Assembly: GCF_003334255.1 (NCBI RefSeq)
Contig: NZ_QOWU01000070.1
Reading direction: 5' to 3' (one strand)
DNA: 19,728 nt
Source: Escherichia coli
GTDB taxonomy: Bacteria > Pseudomonadota > Gammaproteobacteria > Enterobacterales > Enterobacteriaceae
The notes under the pieces were generated by a model that saw only the letters and a program-made list of their open reading frames with translations, was not told the origin of the DNA and did no database searches. The position numbers and the translations under genes are program-made. Below, in pieces: positions 1-18,375 of the stretch (position 1 is its first letter; every line of letters starts with the position of its first letter).

Positions 1-59
1 TATTTTCCGAATGCATAATGACCTCCTCTGGAATATCCCACCAATGCTATAGTGAGTAT

Positions 60-295
60 ATAAAGGTCATACCATCTTTATGTTCTTTGGCAGCGATCAC
101 GGCGGCGAGCGTGGAGCACTGTTGTACGGGCTGATCGGCACCTGCCGTCTGAACGGCATCGATCCGGAAGCGTATCTGCGCCATATCCTGAGCGTACTGC
201 CGGAATGGCCTTCCAACCGAGTTGATGAACTCCTGCCATGGAACGTAGTACTCACCAATAAATAAGCGTCAATACGGTGCTCCGTTGACGCTTAC
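60..295 (+). mobile_element. IS66-family insertion sequence, 3'-terminal remnant
   Basis: ORF 80-265 matches the conserved C-terminus of IS66-family TnpC (FGSDHGGERGALLY, LIGTCRLNGIDPEAYLRHIL, ELLPWN). It is followed at 266-295 by an imperfect palindrome ending GACGCTTAC, the reverse complement of the GTAAGCG start typical of IS66 terminal inverted repeats. An in-frame stop at 53-55 shows only the last ~60 codons are present, so the element is truncated. Confidence 0.7.
80..265 (+). pseudogene. IS66-family transposase TnpC, C-terminal fragment
   Basis: 61-aa ORF with IS66 TnpC C-terminal motifs; no upstream coding continuity. Confidence 0.7.
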
Positions 296-544
296 GTAGT
301 TTTATGGCAATTTGAAGGATGTAATGGCGCACATCCCGCAACAAAGCTGACTAAAATAGCCAGCATAACGATTTTATTTACCCCCATCTCTTGTTCCTCA
401 ATCCATATAGTTCTCAGTAATAACTGTTTTTCTGGTACAGCACTGACCGTCCAGTTAAACTTATCTCAGTACCATAGCTCTGTCAGAGCAAAACAAATCT
501 TAACGAATACAAGTTAATAGATTATTAATATCCCCCCCTCATCC

Positions 545-3256
545 CTACATTCCAGGTGATGGTGGCGTCCACTCATTATCCTGAACTGGAGTATAAGATG
601 TGTCATTCCCCCCGGATATGCTTTTCTGTTGCCTGATATATTCGTGGTAGTACTGTTCACTACGCTGACGATGTAAATCCACATCCGGGCGGCTGATTAC
701 AAAGTGTCCATTTCCGGTTATTCCAGCTGCATTATGCCAGGCCACCATTTCCGCAAATACATCATTAAACTGTTGATATGAGCCTTCCGGTTCAAAACCC
801 ATTCCAGGCTCACGATCAAACAATACAGGAGCAATCAGATTCAGCTTATCCACCAGTTCATTTCTGTCCTGATGATGGTAGAACACCACACGGTCCCCAT
901 AATCCACACAGACTAACTCGCCATTCCTCCGATCACGAAAACGCACACTGCCATCTTTCTGCAGACGGGCTTCGAGAACGCCAGTGTCTTCATAAAGTGG
1001 AGTTCCTCCCGGTTCACAGATAATCACGCAGCGGTCGGCATTCGTTGTTCGTCGCTTGTCTTTGCGACGATCACGATAATCCCAGCCACGTAACTGTGAT
1101 ACTGCAGCTCTGTCTCCCTGTACCGCCTGTTGCTCCACCCACTGCCGGTAGGACAAAGGATACCACTTACCCTCCGCAATCAGTGACAACCGCTCTTCCT
1201 TCACACTCTCCTTCAGCCTGATCAGCGCCTGCATACGCTGCACTTCCGCAATATGGTAATGCAGCTTACGCAATTGTGGATCCCGGAACTGCACGCGGAT
1301 ATACGCCTTGCGCCGACGGCAGGCAGCATGAATTTCCCGTAACCGTTCTCCGTAACGTAAGTCGGGTTTACGCCAGTGCTCCTTCCATGCAAGATAACGC
1401 GCGCGCAAATCTTCCCGCGCAGCTGCACGGGCTTCACGGCGTTCACGACGCAGTACAGGATCGCGCCGGAAGCCGGGCTCCACTTCATCGCTGGCAGCAA
1501 GTTCCGGATTGTAGCGACATTCAGGCTTCACCCGTTCAAATATATCTGCACCTGCGATCTCAAATGGCCCTGCCTGCGGCTCAGCCCTGGATAATGTCAA
1601 ATCCGGGTGGATACTGCTGGCCTTCACTGGTGTCAGCTCATGATTAAACGCATCCACAATCACAAGACCATGATGCTGTTTCTGCAACATAAGCCCTTTA
1701 CGCGCAAACATCTCATGGCACGCCTGCCAGCTGAAATTCCCGCCCGCGATCATATCTTCAATCAACGACTCACACTGAACAGTCGTGTACCCCCACAGAC
1801 TTTCCTTATCAGAAAACAGTTCGCGCTTTATTGCTCCCTGTGGACCTGTCCCCATCCGCATACGATACCATTCGTAATCACTGACAGCCCGGGTACCGGT
1901 ACTGTGCCCCCGGAATCGTTCTCCGGGGACGACCTGGGTAAAAATATCCTTCGGTACAGGCTGCCATCCGCCTTCCTGATCCTGCATGTAATCCAGCGTC
2001 ATTAACGGCCACACACTGTCTGCACGTACTGGTGTCTGTTGTTTATCAAATCCATCATGCAGTACCAGATGCCCGTGCTGGATCCCCATCCATAATCCAG
2101 CCTTTGCCAGAGTTCTGTGCACATCCAGGCAACTTTCCAGCTCACCATTTCTCGCCATTTCCGGTAAGCGTTCGGCAAAATGACGGCAGGCGTACTGTTT
2201 CAGACTCTCCGTTTCTGCCACTTTTTCCGGCCGGATATCAACGTTTATCGCTTCCGGATCATAACGACCGGGTGTCCCCACCTGACTGAAAATATCTGTC
2301 GGTACAGGCTGATATTCTCCCAGTTTCCGCCCCAGTCTTTCAGCCGTCCATGACGGGCCGAACGAACTGAGCACAACACCTTCCCGCGATCTGTCCCAGC
2401 CATCCTTCACCACCAGTTCTCCCTCCTGCATCGTGATATACAGACCATCACGGGCCAGCCGTTTATGCAAAGACAACCAGTCCTGGGCGGGTTCTTCACG
2501 CAGCCCGGCAATCGACATCTGCGCAATATATTCCCTGAAGGTCTGCTTTTTCCCGCGTCGCCAGGCATTACGGCGCTCACGTACCAGCGCTGTTTTACGC
2601 ACAATACGGTTGCCCGGTGCATGCACAAAACACCCGTTATCCGGTGCAAATCCGTGCTTAAGTTCAAGTTCACGGCATGCACGACTGAGTTTTTCCTTGC
2701 TCCACGGAAGGCAATTGATATAGCCGGTTTCAGGATGAACACGATTCACTGCAACATGTACATGCAGGTTATCGGTGTCTGTATGAACGGCAGCTACATA
2801 CTGATGTTTTGAAAGTTCAAGGGATTTCAGTGTGTGACGTACGCAGTCAAAAAGCTGCTCAGGACGCGGGCTTTCATGCGCAGGCCAGGAAAGAATGTAG
2901 TGAAAAACAGGGTCTGTATCATCTTTGGAAAAATGAGCAAGGTCTGCTGCTTTCTGCATTTCTTCAGCCGCAGATTCAAGAGACAAACAGTTATGAAAGC
3001 AGGTCACACCATAGAAATTCACCCACTGACTGCCGTCTTCCATTACATCAATCAGGGATACAAATTTTTCGTTACGCAGGCGTGTGGCATAGTCAACAAG
3101 CCGTCTGAAGCGGTTACGGTGCGGGACCTCACCTTTCATTTCCGGGTCTGGTTTGAGTTCATCATCCTGCACATCATCCCGCACAGACGTGTACGCAATC
3201 AGGTCTTCAAAGGAAGACCTTCCGTCACGTCTTTTGGGCGGAATGATAGCATTCAT
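545..3256 (-). CDS. nikB: MOBP-family conjugative relaxase (NikB-like), 903 aa
   Basis: Relaxase histidine motif HTDTDNLHVHVAVNRVHPETG (HxDxxxxHxH type). Size and N-terminus (MNAIIPPKRRDGRSSFEDL) fit my memory of IncI1 R64 NikB (~900 aa). Lies directly downstream of a nikA-like gene and oriT. Confidence 0.88.
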   Translation of the reverse strand: MNAIIPPKRRDGRSSFEDLIAYTSVRDDVQDDELKPDPEMKGEVPHRNRFRRLVDYATRLRNEKFVSLIDVMEDGSQWVNFYGVTCFHNCLSLESAAEEMQKAADLAHFSKDDTDPVFHYILSWPAHESPRPEQLFDCVRHTLKSLELSKHQYVAAVHTDTDNLHVHVAVNRVHPETGYINCLPWSKEKLSRACRELELKHGFAPDNGCFVHAPGNRIVRKTALVRERRNAWRRGKKQTFREYIAQMSIAGLREEPAQDWLSLHKRLARDGLYITMQEGELVVKDGWDRSREGVVLSSFGPSWTAERLGRKLGEYQPVPTDIFSQVGTPGRYDPEAINVDIRPEKVAETESLKQYACRHFAERLPEMARNGELESCLDVHRTLAKAGLWMGIQHGHLVLHDGFDKQQTPVRADSVWPLMTLDYMQDQEGGWQPVPKDIFTQVVPGERFRGHSTGTRAVSDYEWYRMRMGTGPQGAIKRELFSDKESLWGYTTVQCESLIEDMIAGGNFSWQACHEMFARKGLMLQKQHHGLVIVDAFNHELTPVKASSIHPDLTLSRAEPQAGPFEIAGADIFERVKPECRYNPELAASDEVEPGFRRDPVLRRERREARAAAREDLRARYLAWKEHWRKPDLRYGERLREIHAACRRRKAYIRVQFRDPQLRKLHYHIAEVQRMQALIRLKESVKEERLSLIAEGKWYPLSYRQWVEQQAVQGDRAAVSQLRGWDYRDRRKDKRRTTNADRCVIICEPGGTPLYEDTGVLEARLQKDGSVRFRDRRNGELVCVDYGDRVVFYHHQDRNELVDKLNLIAPVLFDREPGMGFEPEGSYQQFNDVFAEMVAWHNAAGITGNGHFVISRPDVDLHRQRSEQYYHEYIRQQKSISGGNDTSYTPVQDNEWTPPSPGM

Positions 3257-3267
3257 CAGCGACTGTC

Positions 3268-3600
3268 TCAGCGTCCCATTAAGTCTCTTCGCAGAGTGTT
3301 TGCAAGTTCTGTAATGGCAACGAGGACCTCTGCATACTCTTTATCTCCCGTGCGTTTTCCTTCCACAAACAGATGCTTCTGCAGGTGACCAAGACGCATC
3401 AACTCTTTCAAAAAATCTTCATCAATGCGGGCATTTATCTGTTTTCCCAGCACAGTTTTTCTTATCAGAGTTGAAACTGTCAGTCCGTTTTTTTCTGCCT
3501 TTTCTTTAACAATCTCAGCCTCTTCTGGTGAAAAACGAACAGCAATGAGGACATTCTTTTGCCGTTTCTCACTGCCATTTCGGTTTTTCTTCTCACTCAT
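3268..3600 (-). CDS. nikA: Relaxosome accessory protein NikA (ribbon-helix-helix oriT-binding), 110 aa
   Basis: 110-aa product starting MSEKKNRNGSEKRQ with SD AAGGAG 6 nt upstream of the ATG at 3598-3600; the longer 139-aa ORF in the track would overlap the oriT repeat. Small basic protein immediately upstream of the relaxase, the R64 nikA-nikB arrangement. Confidence 0.85.
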   Translation of the reverse strand: MSEKKNRNGSEKRQKNVLIAVRFSPEEAEIVKEKAEKNGLTVSTLIRKTVLGKQINARIDEDFLKELMRLGHLQKHLFVEGKRTGDKEYAEVLVAITELANTLRRDLMGR

Positions 3601-3641
3601 GGTCTGCTCCTTACCAGGGTGTCGGGGCAAAGCCCTGACCA

Positions 3642-3700
3642 GGTGGTAATCGTATAGCCGTGCGTGCGCGGTTATACGATTACACATCCTGTCCCGTTTT
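3642..3700 (+). other. oriT: oriT: inverted repeat (arms 3646-3656 / 3673-3683) followed by nick-core-like ACATCCTG TCCCG
   Basis: 11-bp inverted repeat GTAATCGTATA / TATACGATTAC, then 8 bp later ATCCTG (3686-3691) resembling the MOBP nic core (RP4 ATCCTG|C); sits between nikA and the leading region. Nick position 3691|3692 is inferred by analogy only. Confidence 0.6.
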
Positions 3701-3832
3701 TCAGGCCATTATAGCCTGTTATTTTTGTGCATCATAGTCTTATGCAGACGGCAGAGGCAGGGCGCAGCCCTGCCAGGAGGCAGTTTTTGGTGATAAAATC
3801 AGGCTTCAACATGAAACGGAGAGAAAGTGCCA

Positions 3833-4168
3833 ATGGCTTCTAAAAAATTTTACTCAGATGATGACATCCAGCTGGCAAAAGCTGCTTTATCGGAATTGCC
3901 GGACCTCACCGCTCAACGGAAAACATTGCGTGATTTTCTTGATGCCATTCGTGATGACATCATTGTCCTGGTAAGGACAAAGGGTTATACACTGACAGAT
4001 GTTCGTGACACGCTCAAAAATGCAGGGTATGAAGTAGGAGAGAAAGCACTTCGTGACATTATTCGGGAAGCAGAATCGAAAAAACCATCCCGCCGTTCTT
4101 CCTCTAAAACAGCACCTAAAAAGACAGATTCAGGCAGGAAAGATGGCATCGATATGAACAACAATTGA
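3833..4168 (+). CDS. Hypothetical small basic protein (possible DNA-binding), 111 aa
   Basis: ORF with ATG at 3833 preceded by GGAGAGAAA; C-terminal lysine/arginine/serine-rich tail; stop directly followed by the perfect palindrome GATGTGAC ga GTCACATC (4167-4185). Function not recognised. Confidence 0.6.
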   Translation: MASKKFYSDDDIQLAKAALSELPDLTAQRKTLRDFLDAIRDDIIVLVRTKGYTLTDVRDTLKNAGYEVGEKALRDIIREAESKKPSRRSSSKTAPKKTDSGRKDGIDMNNN

Positions 4169-4212
4169 TGTGACGATGTCACATCGTGTTCTGAGATTAT
4201 GATGATTACAGA

Positions 4213-4249
4213 AAAAAAAGCCCCGGCATAAATACCAGGGCTTTTCTGT
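4213..4249 (-). terminator. Rho-independent terminator for the minus-strand leading-region transcript
   Basis: On the minus strand: stem AAAGCCCTGG / CCGGGGCTTT with one mismatch, followed by a run of 8 T; located just after the stop of the 4254-5102 gene. Confidence 0.7.
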
Positions 4250-4253
4250 TTGA

Positions 4254-5102
4254 TCAGACTCGTGGCGGCAATGCACCAGGATAATGACGTGCAATAATAT
4301 CATTCAGTTTTTCAACAAGGTCAGGACACTTAAAGACAATATGTACGGTCCCTTTCTGGTAGCCACGCACCGTAAAATATTCCCCTTCAAACAACTCACC
4401 GATATTGTCGCCGTTCCCGAGATATTCACCATACTGCGCCCCGATGCTGTTCCTGAAGTCAGGAACGTTGCGTCCCTCCAGCAGATAAAACGGACGTACC
4501 AGGTCATCCAGTGCCTCCCGTCCGCTGCAGTCCAGCGTCACACGCCCGTTACTCCAGCGGTACAGCAGGTTTTCAATAATGATTTTCTTGCCCAGACGGC
4601 AGGGATTATTGGTTCTGTAATCCCATGACAATTTCCGGTAGACATCAATCAGTCCCTGTTCAAATGTCTGCATCTTGCTGGCATTCAGATGGCGAAAAGT
4701 TGCCAGTACATTGTCCAGGGTGATTTCAGGACAGGTGTCGCTCATCAGCTGGCTGTTCCACTCATCACGCTGGCATGAACTCATGAAGGTGTACATCCCC
4801 GTATCCGCCATCAGGCGGTCCCAGATTTTACGGTCGGCAAGACGGGTGATATTCTTTTTTGCTTCTTCCGGTTTATCCATGCATCGAACGGAGTCAGTCA
4901 CGCAGTCTTCAAACCCGTAGAGAAAAATGTCACCAGAAGCATCGAGCAGAATCCTGCGTGCTGTCGCCAGGCATTCCATCGCCTGCATGAACAGTGCAAT
5001 ACCTTCGTTACGCTGCGCGATAATGCGGTCGATGGCCACAGACGGAATAATATCTGTCGTGCCGGCAGTATTCAGGTCAGCAGTGGGTAAAGTCTGATTC
5101 AT
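4254..5102 (-). CDS. Hypothetical protein, first gene of the leading region (possibly DUF4942-like), 282 aa
   Basis: Long ORF; ATG at 5100-5102 with SD GAGGAG 8 nt upstream (the track start is a GTG one codon earlier). No methyltransferase, HExxH or nuclease motif seen by eye. The family assignment is from memory and weak. Confidence 0.75.
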   Translation of the reverse strand: MNQTLPTADLNTAGTTDIIPSVAIDRIIAQRNEGIALFMQAMECLATARRILLDASGDIFLYGFEDCVTDSVRCMDKPEEAKKNITRLADRKIWDRLMADTGMYTFMSSCQRDEWNSQLMSDTCPEITLDNVLATFRHLNASKMQTFEQGLIDVYRKLSWDYRTNNPCRLGKKIIIENLLYRWSNGRVTLDCSGREALDDLVRPFYLLEGRNVPDFRNSIGAQYGEYLGNGDNIGELFEGEYFTVRGYQKGTVHIVFKCPDLVEKLNDIIARHYPGALPPRV

Positions 5103-5152
5103 CACATTGTCTCCTCATCGTCACGACTGCCGGGTCAGCCAGGTCATTTCCC

Positions 5153-5463
5153 GGAGGAGCGAAGCTCCTTCTGCCGTCCGGGTCTTCGGGGATTTCCCCG
5201 CAGTGGACCTTTCCGACGGGGGACGCTCACCACGTCACGGGGCAGTTGTCCGGGGGCAGACGCAAAAGTTTTTGACGCCTGCGGCAAAAAGTTTTGTGGC
5301 TGGTACATCTCTCCCCTGGACGACTGAAACGGGATGTGGTCGTGTATGTACCCCCGGAAAGTCCGTCTGCGGAGAACAGGCCGCAGTGCGGCGGCAGACA
5401 GGCAGAGACAGCTGCGCCATCAGGCGCAGTGGCATTACACACCGTCAGGTGTGCAGGGAGCGC
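5153..5463 (+). promoter_or_regulatory. Structured GC-rich element resembling a single-stranded-DNA promoter (Frpo/ssi type), copy 1
   Basis: No credible coding despite many overlapping ORFs; dense hairpins (GGAGC gaa GCTCC, CGGGGAttTCCCCG, CTGCGCC atca GGCGCAG, CACACC gtca GGTGTG); contains TTGACG inside a hairpin; paralogous to 8317-8626. Confidence 0.6.
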
Positions 5464-5578
5464 CGCATCCGGCGCGACTGAAGAAAAACGACGGCACAAC
5501 AATGGCATGTGGTGGTCACTGGCACACCACTCCCGCACAGGTGAAAACAGAGAAAACCGCACGACATCTGCAATTAAA

Positions 5579-5667
5579 AAAAGTGAAATTTCTTCACTTT
5601 TTCACACTTATTTTTCGCGCTGATTTGGTGATTATGGTGATAAAATAAAGTGAAGTTTTTTCACTTT
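5579..5667 (+). promoter_or_regulatory. Twin operator-like palindromes and promoter upstream of the HTH gene
   Basis: Two copies of AAAGTGAA-N5/6-TTCACTTT (5579-5600 and 5647-5667) flanking an AT-rich -10-like stretch, ending 15 bp before the ATG at 5682. Confidence 0.55.
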
Positions 5668-5681
5668 TTCAAAGGTGTTTT

Positions 5682-5933
5682 ATGACCGGCTGGGAACTGC
5701 GAATCTGGCGAAAAAGCATGCTCTGGTCACGCGAAAAAGCGGCCAGAGAATTTGGCGTGACGCAGAGAACATGGCACGCCTGGGAAAATGCGGAACAGGT
5801 GGATGTCACCGTCTGGAGGACCACCCAGGCACTTTCAGTCCGTGACCTGCTGCCTCACATGCAGGGGATGCGTAAGGCAGATATCATCAGGCGACTGGAA
5901 AATGAACTGGGGGAAACGGCAGAGGATGTGTGA
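5682..5933 (+). CDS. Small helix-turn-helix (XRE-like) DNA-binding protein, 83 aa
   Basis: ATG with AAAGGTG SD; N-terminal segment ELRIWRKSMLWSREKAAREFGVTQRTWHAWEN fits an XRE-type HTH; preceded by the twin palindromes. Confidence 0.65.
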   Translation: MTGWELRIWRKSMLWSREKAAREFGVTQRTWHAWENAEQVDVTVWRTTQALSVRDLLPHMQGMRKADIIRRLENELGETAEDV

Positions 5934-5963
5934 GCGTGATTCACAGCCTGGCTGAATGCCAGG

Positions 5964-6122
5964 CTACTGCTCATCAGGAAACAGCTTTTTCAGTTCTTCA
6001 CCGGAAAGTCCCGTGACCTCCTGAATCCGTTCCGGCGGCCAGCCCATATTCCAAAGCCGGCAGGCTATTTCCCGCGCCACTTCAAGTGCGCCTTTTTGAA
6101 TAAGACGTTCTGCAATCGTCAT
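5964..6122 (-). CDS. Free-standing RpnS-like small protein (paralog of the Rpn C-terminal domain), 52 aa
   Basis: MTIAERLIQKGALEVAREIACRLWNMGWPPERIQEVTGLSGEELKKLF parallels the C-terminal tail of the adjacent Rpn protein; own ATG at 6120-6122 with SD CAGGAG; separated from rpn by a terminator hairpin. Confidence 0.6.
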   Translation of the reverse strand: MTIAERLIQKGALEVAREIACRLWNMGWPPERIQEVTGLSGEELKKLFPDEQ

Positions 6123-6146
6123 GCTGTTTGCTCTGCTCCTGCTGAC

Positions 6147-7600: not shown

Positions 7601-7918
7601 TCAAGTTCTGTTACGCACAACTGCAAAGAGATATTTTTTCTGGCTTATAACTTTGCATTTTATTAAACGGGCTATTTCCCTGTAGTCTTTATTAAGAGGA
7701 ATATGAATCATGTCCCCGTTCAGTTCATTAAAAACGCACCCTTTTATATATAACGTCTCATTCATGATAAAACCATACATTGAAAAATGCTGATTTTCAT
7801 ACTCTTTACTGATTAAGTGAAAATATCCCTCCAGCAGTTCCTGCGGGGGATGTGGATCAATCATCCAGTTATCACCAATATATGAACATACTTCTGTTAT
7901 CGTTGTCTGAAATGTCAT
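7601..7918 (-). CDS. Hypothetical protein, 105 aa
   Basis: ORF with SD GGGGG 5 nt upstream of the ATG; strongly AT-rich relative to neighbours; no recognisable motif. Confidence 0.65.
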   Translation of the reverse strand: MTFQTTITEVCSYIGDNWMIDPHPPQELLEGYFHLISKEYENQHFSMYGFIMNETLYIKGCVFNELNGDMIHIPLNKDYREIARLIKCKVISQKKYLFAVVRNRT

Positions 7919-7975
7919 GTTACCCCCTGAAGTAAAAACTTATGATGTGAAATGGGGCGTTTCCGCCCCCTGGTA

Positions 7976-8110
7976 TCACATGGCGTAGCCTCTGAGGTGG
8001 TCCAGCCACCAACAGAACTCGTGCCATTCGTCGCCTTTCATTGGCGGAATGCGTGTGGGTTGTCCTTTGACAACCGCATCAGCAAGGGTTACGATTTGTC
8101 TGAGTGACAT
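7976..8110 (-). CDS. Hypothetical small protein, 44 aa (MSLRQIVTLADAVVKGQPTRIPPMKGDEWHEFCWWLDHLRGYAM)
   Basis: ATG at 8108-8110 preceded by AAGGAT; the longer 75-aa ORF in the track would read through the upstream GC hairpin motif. First gene downstream of structured element copy 2. Confidence 0.5.
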   Translation of the reverse strand: MSLRQIVTLADAVVKGQPTRIPPMKGDEWHEFCWWLDHLRGYAM

Positions 8111-8316
8111 AATCAATATCCTTACAAAGGTTGTTGATATCCGTGCAAAGGGGTGTTCCCGCCCCCCTGGCACACCCACTAACCTCCTTTTCCTTCCCGG
8201 CATTCCCTCACGCTGTGCGTGATTTACATCGTTCTCACCTCCTTCACTGGGTTGTTTCTGTTCGCTAAAAAATGGTCAGGTTGTTAAAGAGCGGCACGGT
8301 ATGTTCAGGCATCTTC

Positions 8317-8626
8317 ACAGGAGCGAAGCTCCTTCTGCCGTCCACTTCTTCGGGGTTTCTCCCGCTGTGGACCTTTCCGATGGGGGCCCGTTTACCGCCT
8401 CACGGGACAGCTGTCCGGGGGCGGACGCAAAATTTTTAGCCGGGTTCATGGCTAAAAATTTTGTGGCCGGTGCATCTCACCCTGGACAGATGGAACGGGA
8501 GGGGGTTACGTCTGCCCCCCGGAAAGTCCACAGCGGGAAACAGGCCGCAGGGGTGGCGGCAGGAGGGAGGACTGCTGCGCCATCAGGCGCAGTTTCCTCA
8601 CACACCGTCAGGTGTGCAGGGAGCGC
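8317..8626 (+). promoter_or_regulatory. Structured GC-rich element resembling a single-stranded-DNA promoter (Frpo/ssi type), copy 2
   Basis: Shares blocks with copy 1 (GGAGCGAAGCTCCTTCTGCCGTCC, GTGGACCTTTCCGA, GTCCGGGGGC-GACGCAAAA, CCCGGAAAGTCC, CTGCGCCATCAGGCGCAGT, ACACACCGTCAGGTGTGCAGGGAGCGC). Contains a perfect 14-bp hairpin CAAAATTTTTAGCC / GGCTAAAAATTTTG (8428-8463). Confidence 0.6.
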
Positions 8627-9015
8627 AGGTCACGGCGCGACAGGGGCGGCGCGACCGGAACGGTCGCTGCAAGCCGGGTTTTCACGCATCGGACCGTAGC
8701 GGCAGCCCGAAACCGCGCCAGCGGGTTCGGCGGAGACTGGCGGGTGCGCCAGCAGCTGCCCGTCGGAGTCGGGCCTGACGACCGGATGCCGCCAGGCAGC
8801 CGGGAGCCGAAGTGGGCGCAATAAAAGACAGCCAGAAACGGTGACAGTGTCACGGAATATCACTCCTGTTCCCTGCATACAGCCATACACTACCTTCTGA
8901 CCGGAAAGCCGGGCCGGCAGCGCCGCAGGCGCTGCACCCCGCGTTTCCGGCAGGCGTCAGCCTGCCTGGGGTTTTCGCGCGGGCTGACAGGCGGCCTCCA
9001 CCGCCTGCCCCTGTA

Positions 9016-9207
9016 TCACCTGTTTCTGCTGCCCTGAAGGATGTAGTGACCGCCCAGGAAAACCGCCTGCTGATTCGCCACAAAATCGCAGATTTCATCA
9101 ACAATCTGCGCGGTGGTGAGCGGTTTCTGCCCCATTTCACGACGCCGCGCATTAATCACGGCCCTGTAATTACGCAGAATTTCGCGGGTTTCTGTGCTGA
9201 TATTCAT
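9016..9207 (-). CDS. Hypothetical small protein, 63 aa, translationally coupled to the upstream gene
   Basis: ATG overlaps the stop of the 9204-9626 gene (ATGA). Confidence 0.6.
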   Translation of the reverse strand: MNISTETREILRNYRAVINARRREMGQKPLTTAQIVDEICDFVANQQAVFLGGHYILQGSRNR

Positions 9208-10511: not shown

Positions 10512-10835
10512 TCATTTCCGGATTTTCGCCAGTGCATCCGCCATGCTGCGGATTTCAGTCCGGGCTTCCAGGACCACCTCCCGCAGAATATCCCGGTCAA
10601 ACCAGCGACGGGACGGTTCATCAGGTATACGCAGCACATCGCAGGCCAGCCCACTGGACAGGATATGCTCCACACACTCACTGACCAGATACATTTCCAC
10701 CGACGAAAAACGAGCGCCACGGTTCAGAATGGCATCGAGCACCACGGGCAGATTTTCGTCATCTTCATCAAGCCAGCAGGGGTAATCGCTTTCCTTCACA
10801 ACCAGACGAAAGCGGCGCGTCTGGCGGGTCAGCAA
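10512..10835 (-). CDS. Hypothetical acidic protein, up to 107 aa (start uncertain)
   Basis: ORF with TTG start in the track and no clear SD; contains the acidic stretch [12 protein letters not shown]; real start could be internal. Confidence 0.45.
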
Positions 10836-11114
10836 CGTCTGACCGGTGGTGGTCAGCGCCGCCCGGATACGCGGGCATCTTCTGCCACTTGGTAACAGAT
10901 GCTTCGTACTGCATTGCGCACTGCATCAAGAACTGCCCTGATTTCGTCTTCGGTCAGCCATTCTCCGGCATACGGGAAAAACACCTGTGTTCCGTCTGCC
11001 GGAAGTACCGGCAGCGACTGCCACTGACTGCCGGACAGTACCAGTTCCGCCCCGGTTCCGGTCAGTTTCTGAATGGCGGAGGCCAGGAGCGGCGGCAGTA
11101 CGCCGCCGTGACGG

Positions 11115-11756
11115 TTGATAAGTAACGTCCGGAAAAACTTCAGCGTCATTCTTGAGCGTACGGTACGCGAACTCAACGGCGAGTCCTGCATATCCCTGGA
11201 AGAAGCACCACCGGCAAAACAACAGATTGTCTGTAGTCGCAGTTTTGGTGAACGAATCACAGACAAAGATGCCATGCACCAGGCTGTTGTTCAGTATGCA
11301 GAGCGGGCCGCAGAGAAACTACGTGGGGAGCGTCAGTATTGCCGGCAGGTGACGACATTTGTACGGACATCCCCCTTTGCAGTAAAAGAACCCTGTTACA
11401 GCAATGCCGCTGTGGAAAAGCTTTCATTGCCCACACAGGACAGCCGGGACATTATTGCCGCCGCATGCAGAGCCTTAAACCATGTCTGGCGTGAAGGGTA
11501 CCGCTATATGAAGGCAGGAGTCATGCTGGCTGATTTCACTCCATCGGGTATAGCGCAGCCGGGATTATTTGATGAAATCCAGCCCCGTAAAAACAGTGAA
11601 AAGTTAATGAAAACACTCGATGAACTGAACCAGTCGGGAAAAGGGAAAGTGTGGTTTGCGGGGCGAGGAACCGCCCCTGAATGGCAAATGAAACAGGAAA
11701 TGCTATCGCCTTCGTATACAACACAATGGACTGAGATCCCCATTGCTTCATTCTGA
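11115..11756 (+). pseudogene. impB: impB/umuC/mucB-family error-prone polymerase gene, 3' half only
   Basis: [13 protein letters not shown] ... [11 protein letters not shown] ... TTFVRTSPFA ... PTQDSRDIIAAA ... YMKAGVMLADF ... LFDE ... WQMKQEMLSPSYTT aligns to the C-terminal ~210 residues of MucB/UmuC as I recall them. An in-frame TGA at 11109-11111 and non-homologous sequence upstream show the N-terminal half, and any impA/impC, are missing. Confidence 0.85.
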
Positions 11757-17497: not shown

Positions 17498-17845
17498 ATG
17501 AAACTGGATATATCTGTAAAGTATTTACTGAAGAGCCTGATACCAAGCCTCATTATTCTTACAGTTTTTTATCTGGGATGGAAAGATAACCAGGAAAATG
17601 CAAGAATGTTTTATGCGTTCATCGGATGCATTATCAGTGCCATTACTTTTCCTTTTTCAATGAGGATAATACAGAAAATGGTAATAAGGTTTACAGGGAA
17701 AGAATTCTGGCAAAAAGACTTCTTTACAAATCCAGTTGGCGGAAGCTTAACTGCTATATTTGAATTATTCTGTTTCGTTATATCAGTTCCTGTGGTTGCC
17801 ATTTACTTAATTTTTATATTCTGCAAAGCCCTTTCAGGAAAATGA
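17498..17845 (+). CDS. Colicin immunity protein of the small E1/Ia/Ib type, 115 aa (likely colicin Ib-type)
   Basis: Strong SD AAAGGAG; small hydrophobic protein with three predicted membrane segments; convergent with and 18 bp from the end of a colicin pore-domain ORF, the classical pore-former colicin-immunity arrangement. Confidence 0.65.
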   Translation: MKLDISVKYLLKSLIPSLIILTVFYLGWKDNQENARMFYAFIGCIISAITFPFSMRIIQKMVIRFTGKEFWQKDFFTNPVGGSLTAIFELFCFVISVPVVAIYLIFIFCKALSGK

Positions 17846-17862
17846 AAGGGCATCATTATGTG

Positions 17863-18375
17863 TCAGATACCAATAAGTTTATTGACCTGCTCAATAAACT
17901 TATCATTAACAAGCGCACTCACAGCAGCCATAATAATTGCAAAACCCAGAATACCTACAGGGGTTCCCAGCATGACGGAAAACGTCCATGCTGTAACTGC
18001 TGAAGCAGCTCTTCCTGCTGCCAGTGATTCAAGTTTTACAAAAAATGGACGCCAGTTGTCCGTTTTTACAGCCTTTTGTAACTCCACAGCAACATCATAA
18101 CGATCAATAACTTTTCCGGTAAAACCAAATGCCTTACTGAACAGCTTAAAATTCTCCGCCATATGGACCTGATTAATAGCTTCCAGGGCTTTAGAAATGG
18201 CCATGCGATCTTGTATGCTATATTTCTTGTTCAGATTATTACGGAATTTATCAAAAGCGTTCAGTGCATCATCCACACTCTTAATTTGTTTCCCTTGAGA
18301 TACAGAAGCCAGCTCCTTAGAAAGTTCGGATGCTTGTTTACCCGAGTAGGCAGCCTGGCGGCTGCGGCTTGTCAT
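17863..18375 (-). pseudogene. Pore-forming colicin, C-terminal channel domain only (170 aa); N-terminal translocation and receptor domains absent
   Basis: TDNWRPFFVKLESLAAGRAASAVTAWTFSVMLGTPVGILGFAIIMAAVSALVNDKFIEQVNKLIGI matches the hydrophobic helical hairpin and C-terminal LIGI ending of channel-forming colicins as I recall them. An in-frame TAA three codons upstream of the first ATG shows the rest of the gene is missing. Confidence 0.7.

Follow-up and report, generated by a model that had tools for sequence, protein, structure and literature searches.

Does the DNA upstream of a nikA-like gene hold an origin of transfer (oriT), at which a conjugative plasmid is nicked to let one strand move into another cell, and if so, which strand leaves the donor and which genes arrive first in the recipient? 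We addressed this question in a stretch of 19,728 nucleotides of Escherichia coli DNA, referred to as the window throughout. Positions 3617-3696 are very probably the oriT of a plasmid of the I-complex (the IncK/IncB/O/Z/IncI1 family) and of the R64/RP4 MOBP type, and no observation speaks against this reading. Elements of this kind are already known, here an R64-type MOBP oriT in its pCT/IncK allele, present in hundreds of sequenced plasmids. Its position, the nicked strand and the direction of transfer orient the whole window, as everything from 3692 upward would be leading-region DNA and the first to enter as single-stranded DNA (ssDNA). Any reading of the downstream genes as establishment or anti-defence genes expressed early also presupposes this orientation. 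The core consists of the following parts, with a slash marking the predicted cut.

3617-3696, plus strand: natural minimal oriT block, common to the window and to small hitch-hiking plasmids
3621-3639, plus strand: 8-bp inverted repeat, the distal hairpin of oriT (GTCGGGGC-AAA-GCCCTGAC)
3646-3662, plus strand: distal arm of the 17-bp repeat, counterpart of the R64 'repeat B' (GTAATCGTATAGCCGTG)
3667-3683, plus strand: proximal arm of the 17-bp repeat, counterpart of the R64 'repeat A' (CGCGGTTATACGATTAC)
3684-3696, plus strand: nick region (ACATCCTG/TCCCG), with the predicted nic at G3691/T3692

A first-pass annotation had placed the oriT core at 3642-3700. The 17-bp repeat and the nick region do fall inside this interval, but the second repeat of the same element (3621-3639) was omitted. 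The annotation also described an inverted repeat, an 8-bp gap, ATCCTG and then a T. These elements and their order are correct, and only the gap is misplaced. The 8 nt run from the end of the proximal arm at 3683 to the predicted nick after 3691, and ATCCTG (3686-3691) begins 2 nt from the repeat with AC (3684-3685) alone in between. Read on the plus strand, ACATCCTG occupies 3684-3691, T3692 comes next and CCCGTTTTTC follows. The 17-bp repeat is imperfect, its arms being complementary at 15 of 17 positions in a comparison of the 17-mers. A repeat search delimits the same structure as 18-nt arms (3646-3663 and 3666-3683) that are 89% complementary and 2 nt apart. Folded as ssDNA, the 101-nt region is predicted to form two adjacent hairpins (z = -5.2), one of which is the 8-bp repeat. 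The published consensus of MOBP nick regions is 5'-YATCCTGY-3' (PMC3772185), and CATCCTGT at 3685-3692 conforms to it. By analogy, the nick is predicted between G3691 and T3692 of the plus strand.

Short motifs and palindromes can arise by chance. ATCCTGY by itself is not significant in the window, as it matches 9 times where 5.1 matches are expected, and 19 of 200 shuffles were as good. Only six inverted repeats were reported across the window when the arms had to measure 15 nt or more and contain an exact 10-nt seed, with at most 40 nt between the copies. The 17-bp repeat is one of them, and three of the six are overlapping palindromes. The locus might thus be a chance palindrome beside a chance ATCCTG or, given the T-run at 3697-3701 after the hairpin, a transcription terminator. 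Comparative data refute both readings, to which we assign next to no probability, as the layout recurs with covariation in the 13 relatives described below. Moreover, the 13-mer ACATCCTGTCCCG occurs only once in the window, the scan did not call the hairpin as a terminator, and the T-run begins 13 nt past the stem. Two relatives of the 13-mer with two mismatches exist in the window, both without an adjoining repeat. A near-match to the nick 13-mer at 10654-10666 on the minus strand was dismissed as chance, lying within coding DNA with no inverted repeat beside it. At gathering thresholds, Rfam gave no match anywhere in the window.

The genes adjoining the repeats encode the expected relaxosome proteins.

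545-3256, minus strand: nikB, MOBP relaxase, 903 aa
3268-3600, minus strand: nikA, ribbon-helix-helix relaxosome accessory protein, 110 aa

Both genes are full-length open reading frames. The start codon of the minus-strand gene nikA reads CAT on the plus strand at 3598-3600, and the 17-bp repeat lies 46-92 bp upstream of the gene. The proposed adjacency to nikA is borne out, as a NikA homologue sits directly beside the element. NikA is 66% identical to NikA of R64, with a divergent N-terminal and a conserved C-terminal half, and 96% identical to NikA of pCT, with residues 9-71 identical. The N-terminus matches PDB 2BA3, the ribbon-helix-helix domain of R64 NikA (residues 1-51; E = 8e-8), and the protein scores 111.6 bits against NCBIfam MobA (cut-off 80). 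NikB is 72% identical to its R64 and 91% identical to its pCT counterpart, and scores 409 bits against NCBIfam TraI_MobP_relax (cut-off 250). The alignment with R64 NikB highlights Tyr22 and the motif HTDTDNLHVHV at residues 158-168. By analogy with RP4 TraI, these are presumed to be the catalytic tyrosine and the HUH metal-binding motif, respectively. A PDB search with the NikB N-terminus returned only weak matches to HUH transposases. Transposon-directed insertion sequencing (TraDIS) has shown that conjugation of an IncB/O/Z plasmid requires nikAB (PMC10286972). The proximal arm at 3667-3683 is presumed to be the NikA binding site by analogy with R64; passages in PMC3817090 and PMC4743918 cite the R64 literature on NikA binding at this arm. 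The earlier assignment to a MOBP oriT layout, that of the RP4/R64/Ti-border class, stands, given the fit to YATCCTGY, the repeat ending 8 nt from the nick, and the adjoining genes for a MOBP relaxase and a ribbon-helix-helix protein.

Conservation among relatives also bears on the identity of the element. The 13 relatives were picked by hand from BLAST hits and include plasmids of the IncI1, IncI-gamma/K1 and IncK2 types, others from Enterobacter and Serratia, an IncN plasmid into which a copy has been inserted, and five small plasmids (1.5-7.5 kb). All 13 have an inverted repeat, matching at 12-16 of 17 positions, that ends exactly 8 nt before the ATCCTG/T nick. The 17-bp helix is paired in 88.7% of the alignment cells, and its arms covary, with 8 of 15 pairs changed on both sides. 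Not one of 500 shuffles attained the covariation observed, and in controls with the partner slid by 1-3 columns pairing fell to 32-48%. The 8-bp repeat shows no covariation, as its arms are sequence-invariant in the 13 relatives including a fixed G.T mismatch. The nick-region columns CA.ATCCTGTCC.G are invariant as well. Where the flanks are only about 60% identical, identity is 83-100% in the 8-bp repeat and 70-100% in the nick region. In the distant relatives with such flanks, the 8-bp repeat remains at 83-93% and the nick block at 70-90%, and the 17-bp repeat (60-75%) diverges about as much as nikA (58-67%).

The two arms of the 17-bp repeat are not equivalent. Complementarity of the distal arm has been kept through several allele changes, which fits a role as a hairpin and equally symmetric protein binding on duplex DNA. 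In the proximal arm, CGGT is invariant in all relatives and faces a non-complementary base in nearly all of them. The asymmetry between the arms is itself conserved. Alleles of the repeat are also associated with alleles of NikA. R64 and an E. fergusonii plasmid have both the NikA beta-strand TVVRTLRFSP and the proximal arm in common, and other beta-strands pair with other arms (NVLIAVRFSP in the window, IVKFTARFTE in pTMSA1088 and pO26-CRL125). Judging from these alignments, the DNA-binding half of NikA diverges in step with the 17-bp repeat. We suggest that the repeat and the NikA DNA-binding domain form a co-evolving specificity module, and that conserved machinery reads an invariant part made up of the nick region and the 8-bp repeat. 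The 17-bp and 8-bp repeats at the R64 oriT have been described, with the 17-bp set varying with NikA (PMC3817090). A Salmonella plasmid typed IncI1/B/O (L010:4020-4100) has a longer repeat that reaches a variant nick core, GTATCTTG/TCCCG. This variant, ATCTTG/T, resembles ACATCTTGT found in pCTX-M3, an IncM plasmid (PMC7440800).

Small plasmids carry the block on its own. When 3600-3830 served as a BLAST query, many plasmids of 1.5-8 kb aligned solely over about positions 18-101 of the query (approximately 3617-3700). Two of these, one of the ColE1 type (7.5 kb) and one typed Col(MG828) (1.5 kb), have neither a relaxase nor nikA, and contain the exact proximal arm and nick region of the window. 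Their similarity to the window ends right after TCCCG. The oriT-only copies with the exact proximal-arm allele of the window are the following.

L007:3489-3569: oriT-only copy on a small plasmid
L008:1001-1084: oriT-only copy on a small plasmid

Relaxase-less small plasmids with the same block are typed as mobilizable. Such oriT-only copies of about 80 bp behave like a cis-acting site borrowed for mobilisation in trans, and L007 and L008 look like hitch-hikers matched to a pCT-type NikA.

These copies also bear on whether the inverted repeat might mainly be a NikA operator for the autoregulation of nikAB, with an incidental ATCCTG and transfer starting elsewhere. The location 46-92 bp upstream of the nikA start would suit an operator, and so would a promoter element on the far side of the repeat.

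3708-3713, minus strand: candidate -10 box of a nikAB promoter, a perfect TATAAT read by eye

Transcripts of nikAB starting from this box might read across oriT and hence across the repeat. The TATAAT block is identical in R64 in the alignment. No good -35 box was seen for it, and a sigma-70 consensus scan called no minus-strand nikAB promoter near 3708-3713. Ribbon-helix-helix accessory proteins commonly autoregulate, an example being RA3 MobC, going by the title of PMC4175270. However, small plasmids retain the block of about 80 bp in the absence of nikA and nikB, the genes that would be regulated. The nick block does not vary where NikA and the repeat differ, which an operator would not need, and the 8-nt spacing to the nick is fixed in the 13 relatives and in RP4. 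An operator in place of an oriT is very unlikely. A regulatory role may well coexist with the oriT function and would not replace it.

If 3617-3696 is the oriT, the nick motif also sets the direction of transfer. Relaxases generally cut the strand bearing the nick motif, which is then exported 5' to 3'. The sequence supports the plus strand as the one transferred, with DNA from 3692 upward entering first and nikAB last. The view in the first-pass annotation that the layout defines strand and direction is backed by the nick motif on the plus strand, the minus-strand orientation of leading genes and two Frpo-like hairpins favouring the plus strand. The leading region usually enters first and the relaxase gene last (PMC11541004). 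On the leading side, the features closest to oriT and the two hairpins are the following.

3833-4168, plus strand: conserved divergent ORF, 111 aa, the first leading-side gene
5155-5430, plus strand: Frpo-like ssDNA-promoter hairpin, oriT-proximal copy, upstream of a minus-strand DUF4942 gene
8320-8575, plus strand: Frpo-like ssDNA-promoter hairpin, second copy

Of the genes identified on the leading side, most are encoded by the minus strand (DUF4942, an Rpn nuclease, DUF1380 and an ArdB/KlcA-type antirestriction gene), and the plus strand is therefore the template of most of them. R64 is arranged likewise, with ssb, psiB and ardA pointing toward oriT. The 111-aa ORF is also found beside oriT in R64, pCT, pO26-CRL125 and others, and has no significant match in Pfam or NCBIfam. 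In some public records it bears the label 'molybdopterin-guanine dinucleotide biosynthesis protein MobC', apparently a name transferred in error. Its position recalls that of traK at the RP4 oriT.

The Frpo-like hairpins add a strand-specific signal. The hairpin at 5155-5430 (z = -7.8) has a predicted energy of -84.5 kcal/mol on the plus and -67.8 on the minus strand, and the one at 8320-8575 has -93.5 kcal/mol on the plus (z = -11.5) and -80.4 on the minus strand. Both favour the plus strand by 13-17 kcal/mol, a fold bias expected if selection acts on the strand present as ssDNA in the recipient. The copy at 5155-5430 is 80% identical to the copy at 8300-8600 and homologous to the R64 copies, and the copy at 8320-8575 has 96% identity to the one that directly precedes ssb in R64. 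The element is about 270 nt long, with three copies in the R64 leading region and two in the window. Frpo repeats in IncI leading regions have been described (PMC3817090).

The leading region of the window also shows losses and decay. The R64 block of ssb, DUF905, a parB-like gene, psiB, psiA and ardA is absent (window about 7900-9020 versus R64 at L004:36331-43448), and the place of the resulting gap is that of the Frpo-like copy at 8300-8600. The coincidence suggests that the ssb-ardA block was lost by recombination between Frpo repeats, as in pO111-CRL115, where the loss did not lower conjugation (PMC3817090). A homologue of a 256-aa hypothetical protein of R64 is split over two frames (10515-11164 and the 11127-11747 region), probably by a frameshift. 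Of an impB-type Y-family polymerase gene, only the C-terminal half is present in the 10515-11747 region. According to the annotation of an identical record, 17498-18375 contains an immunity gene of the colicin E1 family and a short pore-forming ORF that resembles a colicin and is presumably the remnant of one.

The context of the window raises the question whether the oriT still acts or is an intact-looking but unused relic on a plasmid without transfer genes. An E. coli plasmid typed IncK2/Z matches the whole window at 100% identity in four pieces. The nearest records, NZ_CP060058 and NZ_CP116070, are typed as mobilizable and have no MPF genes. In these records, IS elements abut nikB; the DNA past nikB is bordered by a transposase gene of ISEc45 (IS110 family; window 1-544, L005:1-1016). 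The 544 nt past the nikB stop (1-544) are unrelated to the trbC side of pCT or R64, and the leading region has lost ssb, psiB, psiA and ardA. All this would suit a relic. Nevertheless, nikA and nikB are full-length, and the conjugative plasmid pCT has an identical core. The loss of the ssb-ardA block left conjugation of pO111-CRL115 unimpaired (PMC3817090). An oriT with its relaxase needs only a co-resident transfer system of the I type, and plasmids of this oriT family are common in E. coli, with 2171 matching records. We consider an inactive relic unlikely. The plasmids in the nearest records encode two MOBP relaxases and no mating-pair genes, and this copy of oriT may work only with a helper plasmid. 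The plasmid, apparently without its own mating apparatus, keeps a complete pCT-type relaxosome module (oriT, nikA and nikB), and a co-resident I-complex helper could move it.

Based on homology with R64 and RP4, transfer would proceed as follows. NikA would bind the nick-proximal arm (3667-3683), and bound NikA would position NikB on the invariant nick region 8 nt off. NikB would cut the plus strand at G3691/T3692 and stay covalently attached to the 5' end at T3692, presumably via Tyr22. The plus strand would then be unwound and exported 5' to 3', with NikB carried into the recipient on the 5' end. DNA from 3692 upward, with the leading region and the Frpo-like ssDNA promoters, would enter first, and nikA and nikB last. 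Both inverted repeats would arrive at the very end of the strand, on the 3' side, where they could fold into hairpins that mark the site at which NikB rejoins the ends. The analysis itself establishes the anatomy, the homologies, the pattern of covariation and conservation, the asymmetry between the strands and a core identical to that of a proven conjugative plasmid. We infer by analogy the protein binding, the exact nick position, the use of hairpins in termination and the activity in this plasmid. According to a passage in PMC5863519 citing Furuya and Komano 2000, initiation in R64 takes only the inner arm, and termination requires the entire repeat.

The nick region also coincides with a step in sequence identity to R64. 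In 100-nt bins over window 645-6140, identity is 55-78% across nikB, nikA and the 17-bp repeat, and jumps to 96-100% from the nick region onward, the step falling within about 3646-3703. The nikAB side is thus about 70% and the leading side 96-100% identical to R64. The step at the nick makes oriT a mosaic junction between a variable module for relaxosome specificity and a shared leading region. It is the one observation here with some potential for novelty. A tentative reading, which we regard as possible and rather less probable than not, is that the 17-bp repeat and the NikA DNA-binding domain form an exchangeable cassette ending at the nick. Modules would be swapped through relaxase-mediated recombination at nic, and small oriT-only plasmids would track NikA alleles. 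The observations behind this reading are the identity step to R64, the repeat alleles with matching NikA beta-strands and the hitch-hikers with the exact allele. Ordinary homologous recombination combined with selection against splitting the pair of NikA and repeat could explain the pattern instead. If the exchangeable cassette is real, it would define separate mobilisation groups inside one plasmid family.

The closest known system is the oriT of pCT (IncK1, NC_014477) and of about 200 related IncK/B/O/Z plasmids. The 17-bp repeat, spacer, nick region and downstream DNA to 3716 are identical to the window. Over 3617-3716 the only difference is at 3629 in the loop of the 8-bp hairpin, and pCT also differs at 3616. 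pCT was shown to be conjugative by filter mating (PMC3377399), so the window shares its functional core with a plasmid of proven self-transmissibility. The word oriT is absent from the main text of the pCT sequence paper (PMC3377399), and we found no nick mapping for the pCT-type allele in the literature. The nearest records differ from pCT in replicon type (IncK2/Z, whereas pCT is IncK1) and beyond nikB, where they have IS elements and no trbC. Of the 670 records in a plasmid collection that match the 84-bp core, 210 do so at 95% identity or more. The IncZ plasmid pO26-CRL125, with an oriT described in the literature, was considered as the closest described relative and rejected, as it has a different 17-bp allele and the same NikA as pTMSA1088; pCT is closer.

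R64 and ColIb-P9 (IncI1) have the same order of nikB-nikA, 8-bp repeat, 17-bp repeat, 8 nt, nick and leading region. The first-pass annotation had suggested an alignment with the R64 oriT, and this yielded an identical nick block in the same architecture directly upstream of nikA. The R64 nick block CACATCCTGTCCCGTTTTTC agrees with the window at 20 of 20 bases, and the 8-bp repeat region is 93% identical with 2 positions differing. As in R64, the 8-bp and 17-bp repeats lie upstream of nikA and Frpo-type elements lie opposite nikAB. The 17-bp repeat of R64 (GCAATTGTAATAGCGTC and GACGGTATTACAATTGC) is another allele, with 73% identity, one base fewer in each arm and changes in both arms that compensate for each other. 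The proximal arm is CGCGGTTATACGATTAC in the window, identical to pCT, and GACGGTATTACAATTGC in R64. R64 NikA may or may not recognize the arm of the window because the DNA-binding half of NikA is divergent.

The likeness to RP4 is more distant. The comparison used an RP4 oriT segment that matched at 100% in IncP-1 plasmids, with the RP4 nick position taken from the literature. RP4/RK2 (IncP-1) shares the ATCCTG core and an imperfect repeat (16/19 in RP4, 16/18 here) ending 8 nt 5' of the nick. It also has genes for a MOBP relaxase and a ribbon-helix-helix accessory protein beside oriT. The nick is followed by C in RP4 and by T here. Outside the nick core the sequences are not similar, the two relaxases are only distant relatives, and no second 8-bp repeat was seen in the RP4 segment examined. 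The label RP4-like is hence right for the layout and the hexamer, with no wider similarity in sequence. Among mobilizable plasmids, the R64-like oriT on pEC156 was shown by experiment to be mobilised in trans (PMC4743918), and mobilisation of the NTP16/pCERC7 family by I-complex helpers through an R64-like oriT has been discussed (PMC9282650). pEC156 and the NTP16/pCERC7 family resemble the window in blocks, about 80-95 bp long, that contain both repeats together with the nick region. They have no nikB, often no nikA, and depend wholly on a helper, whereas the oriT of the window has its own nikAB.
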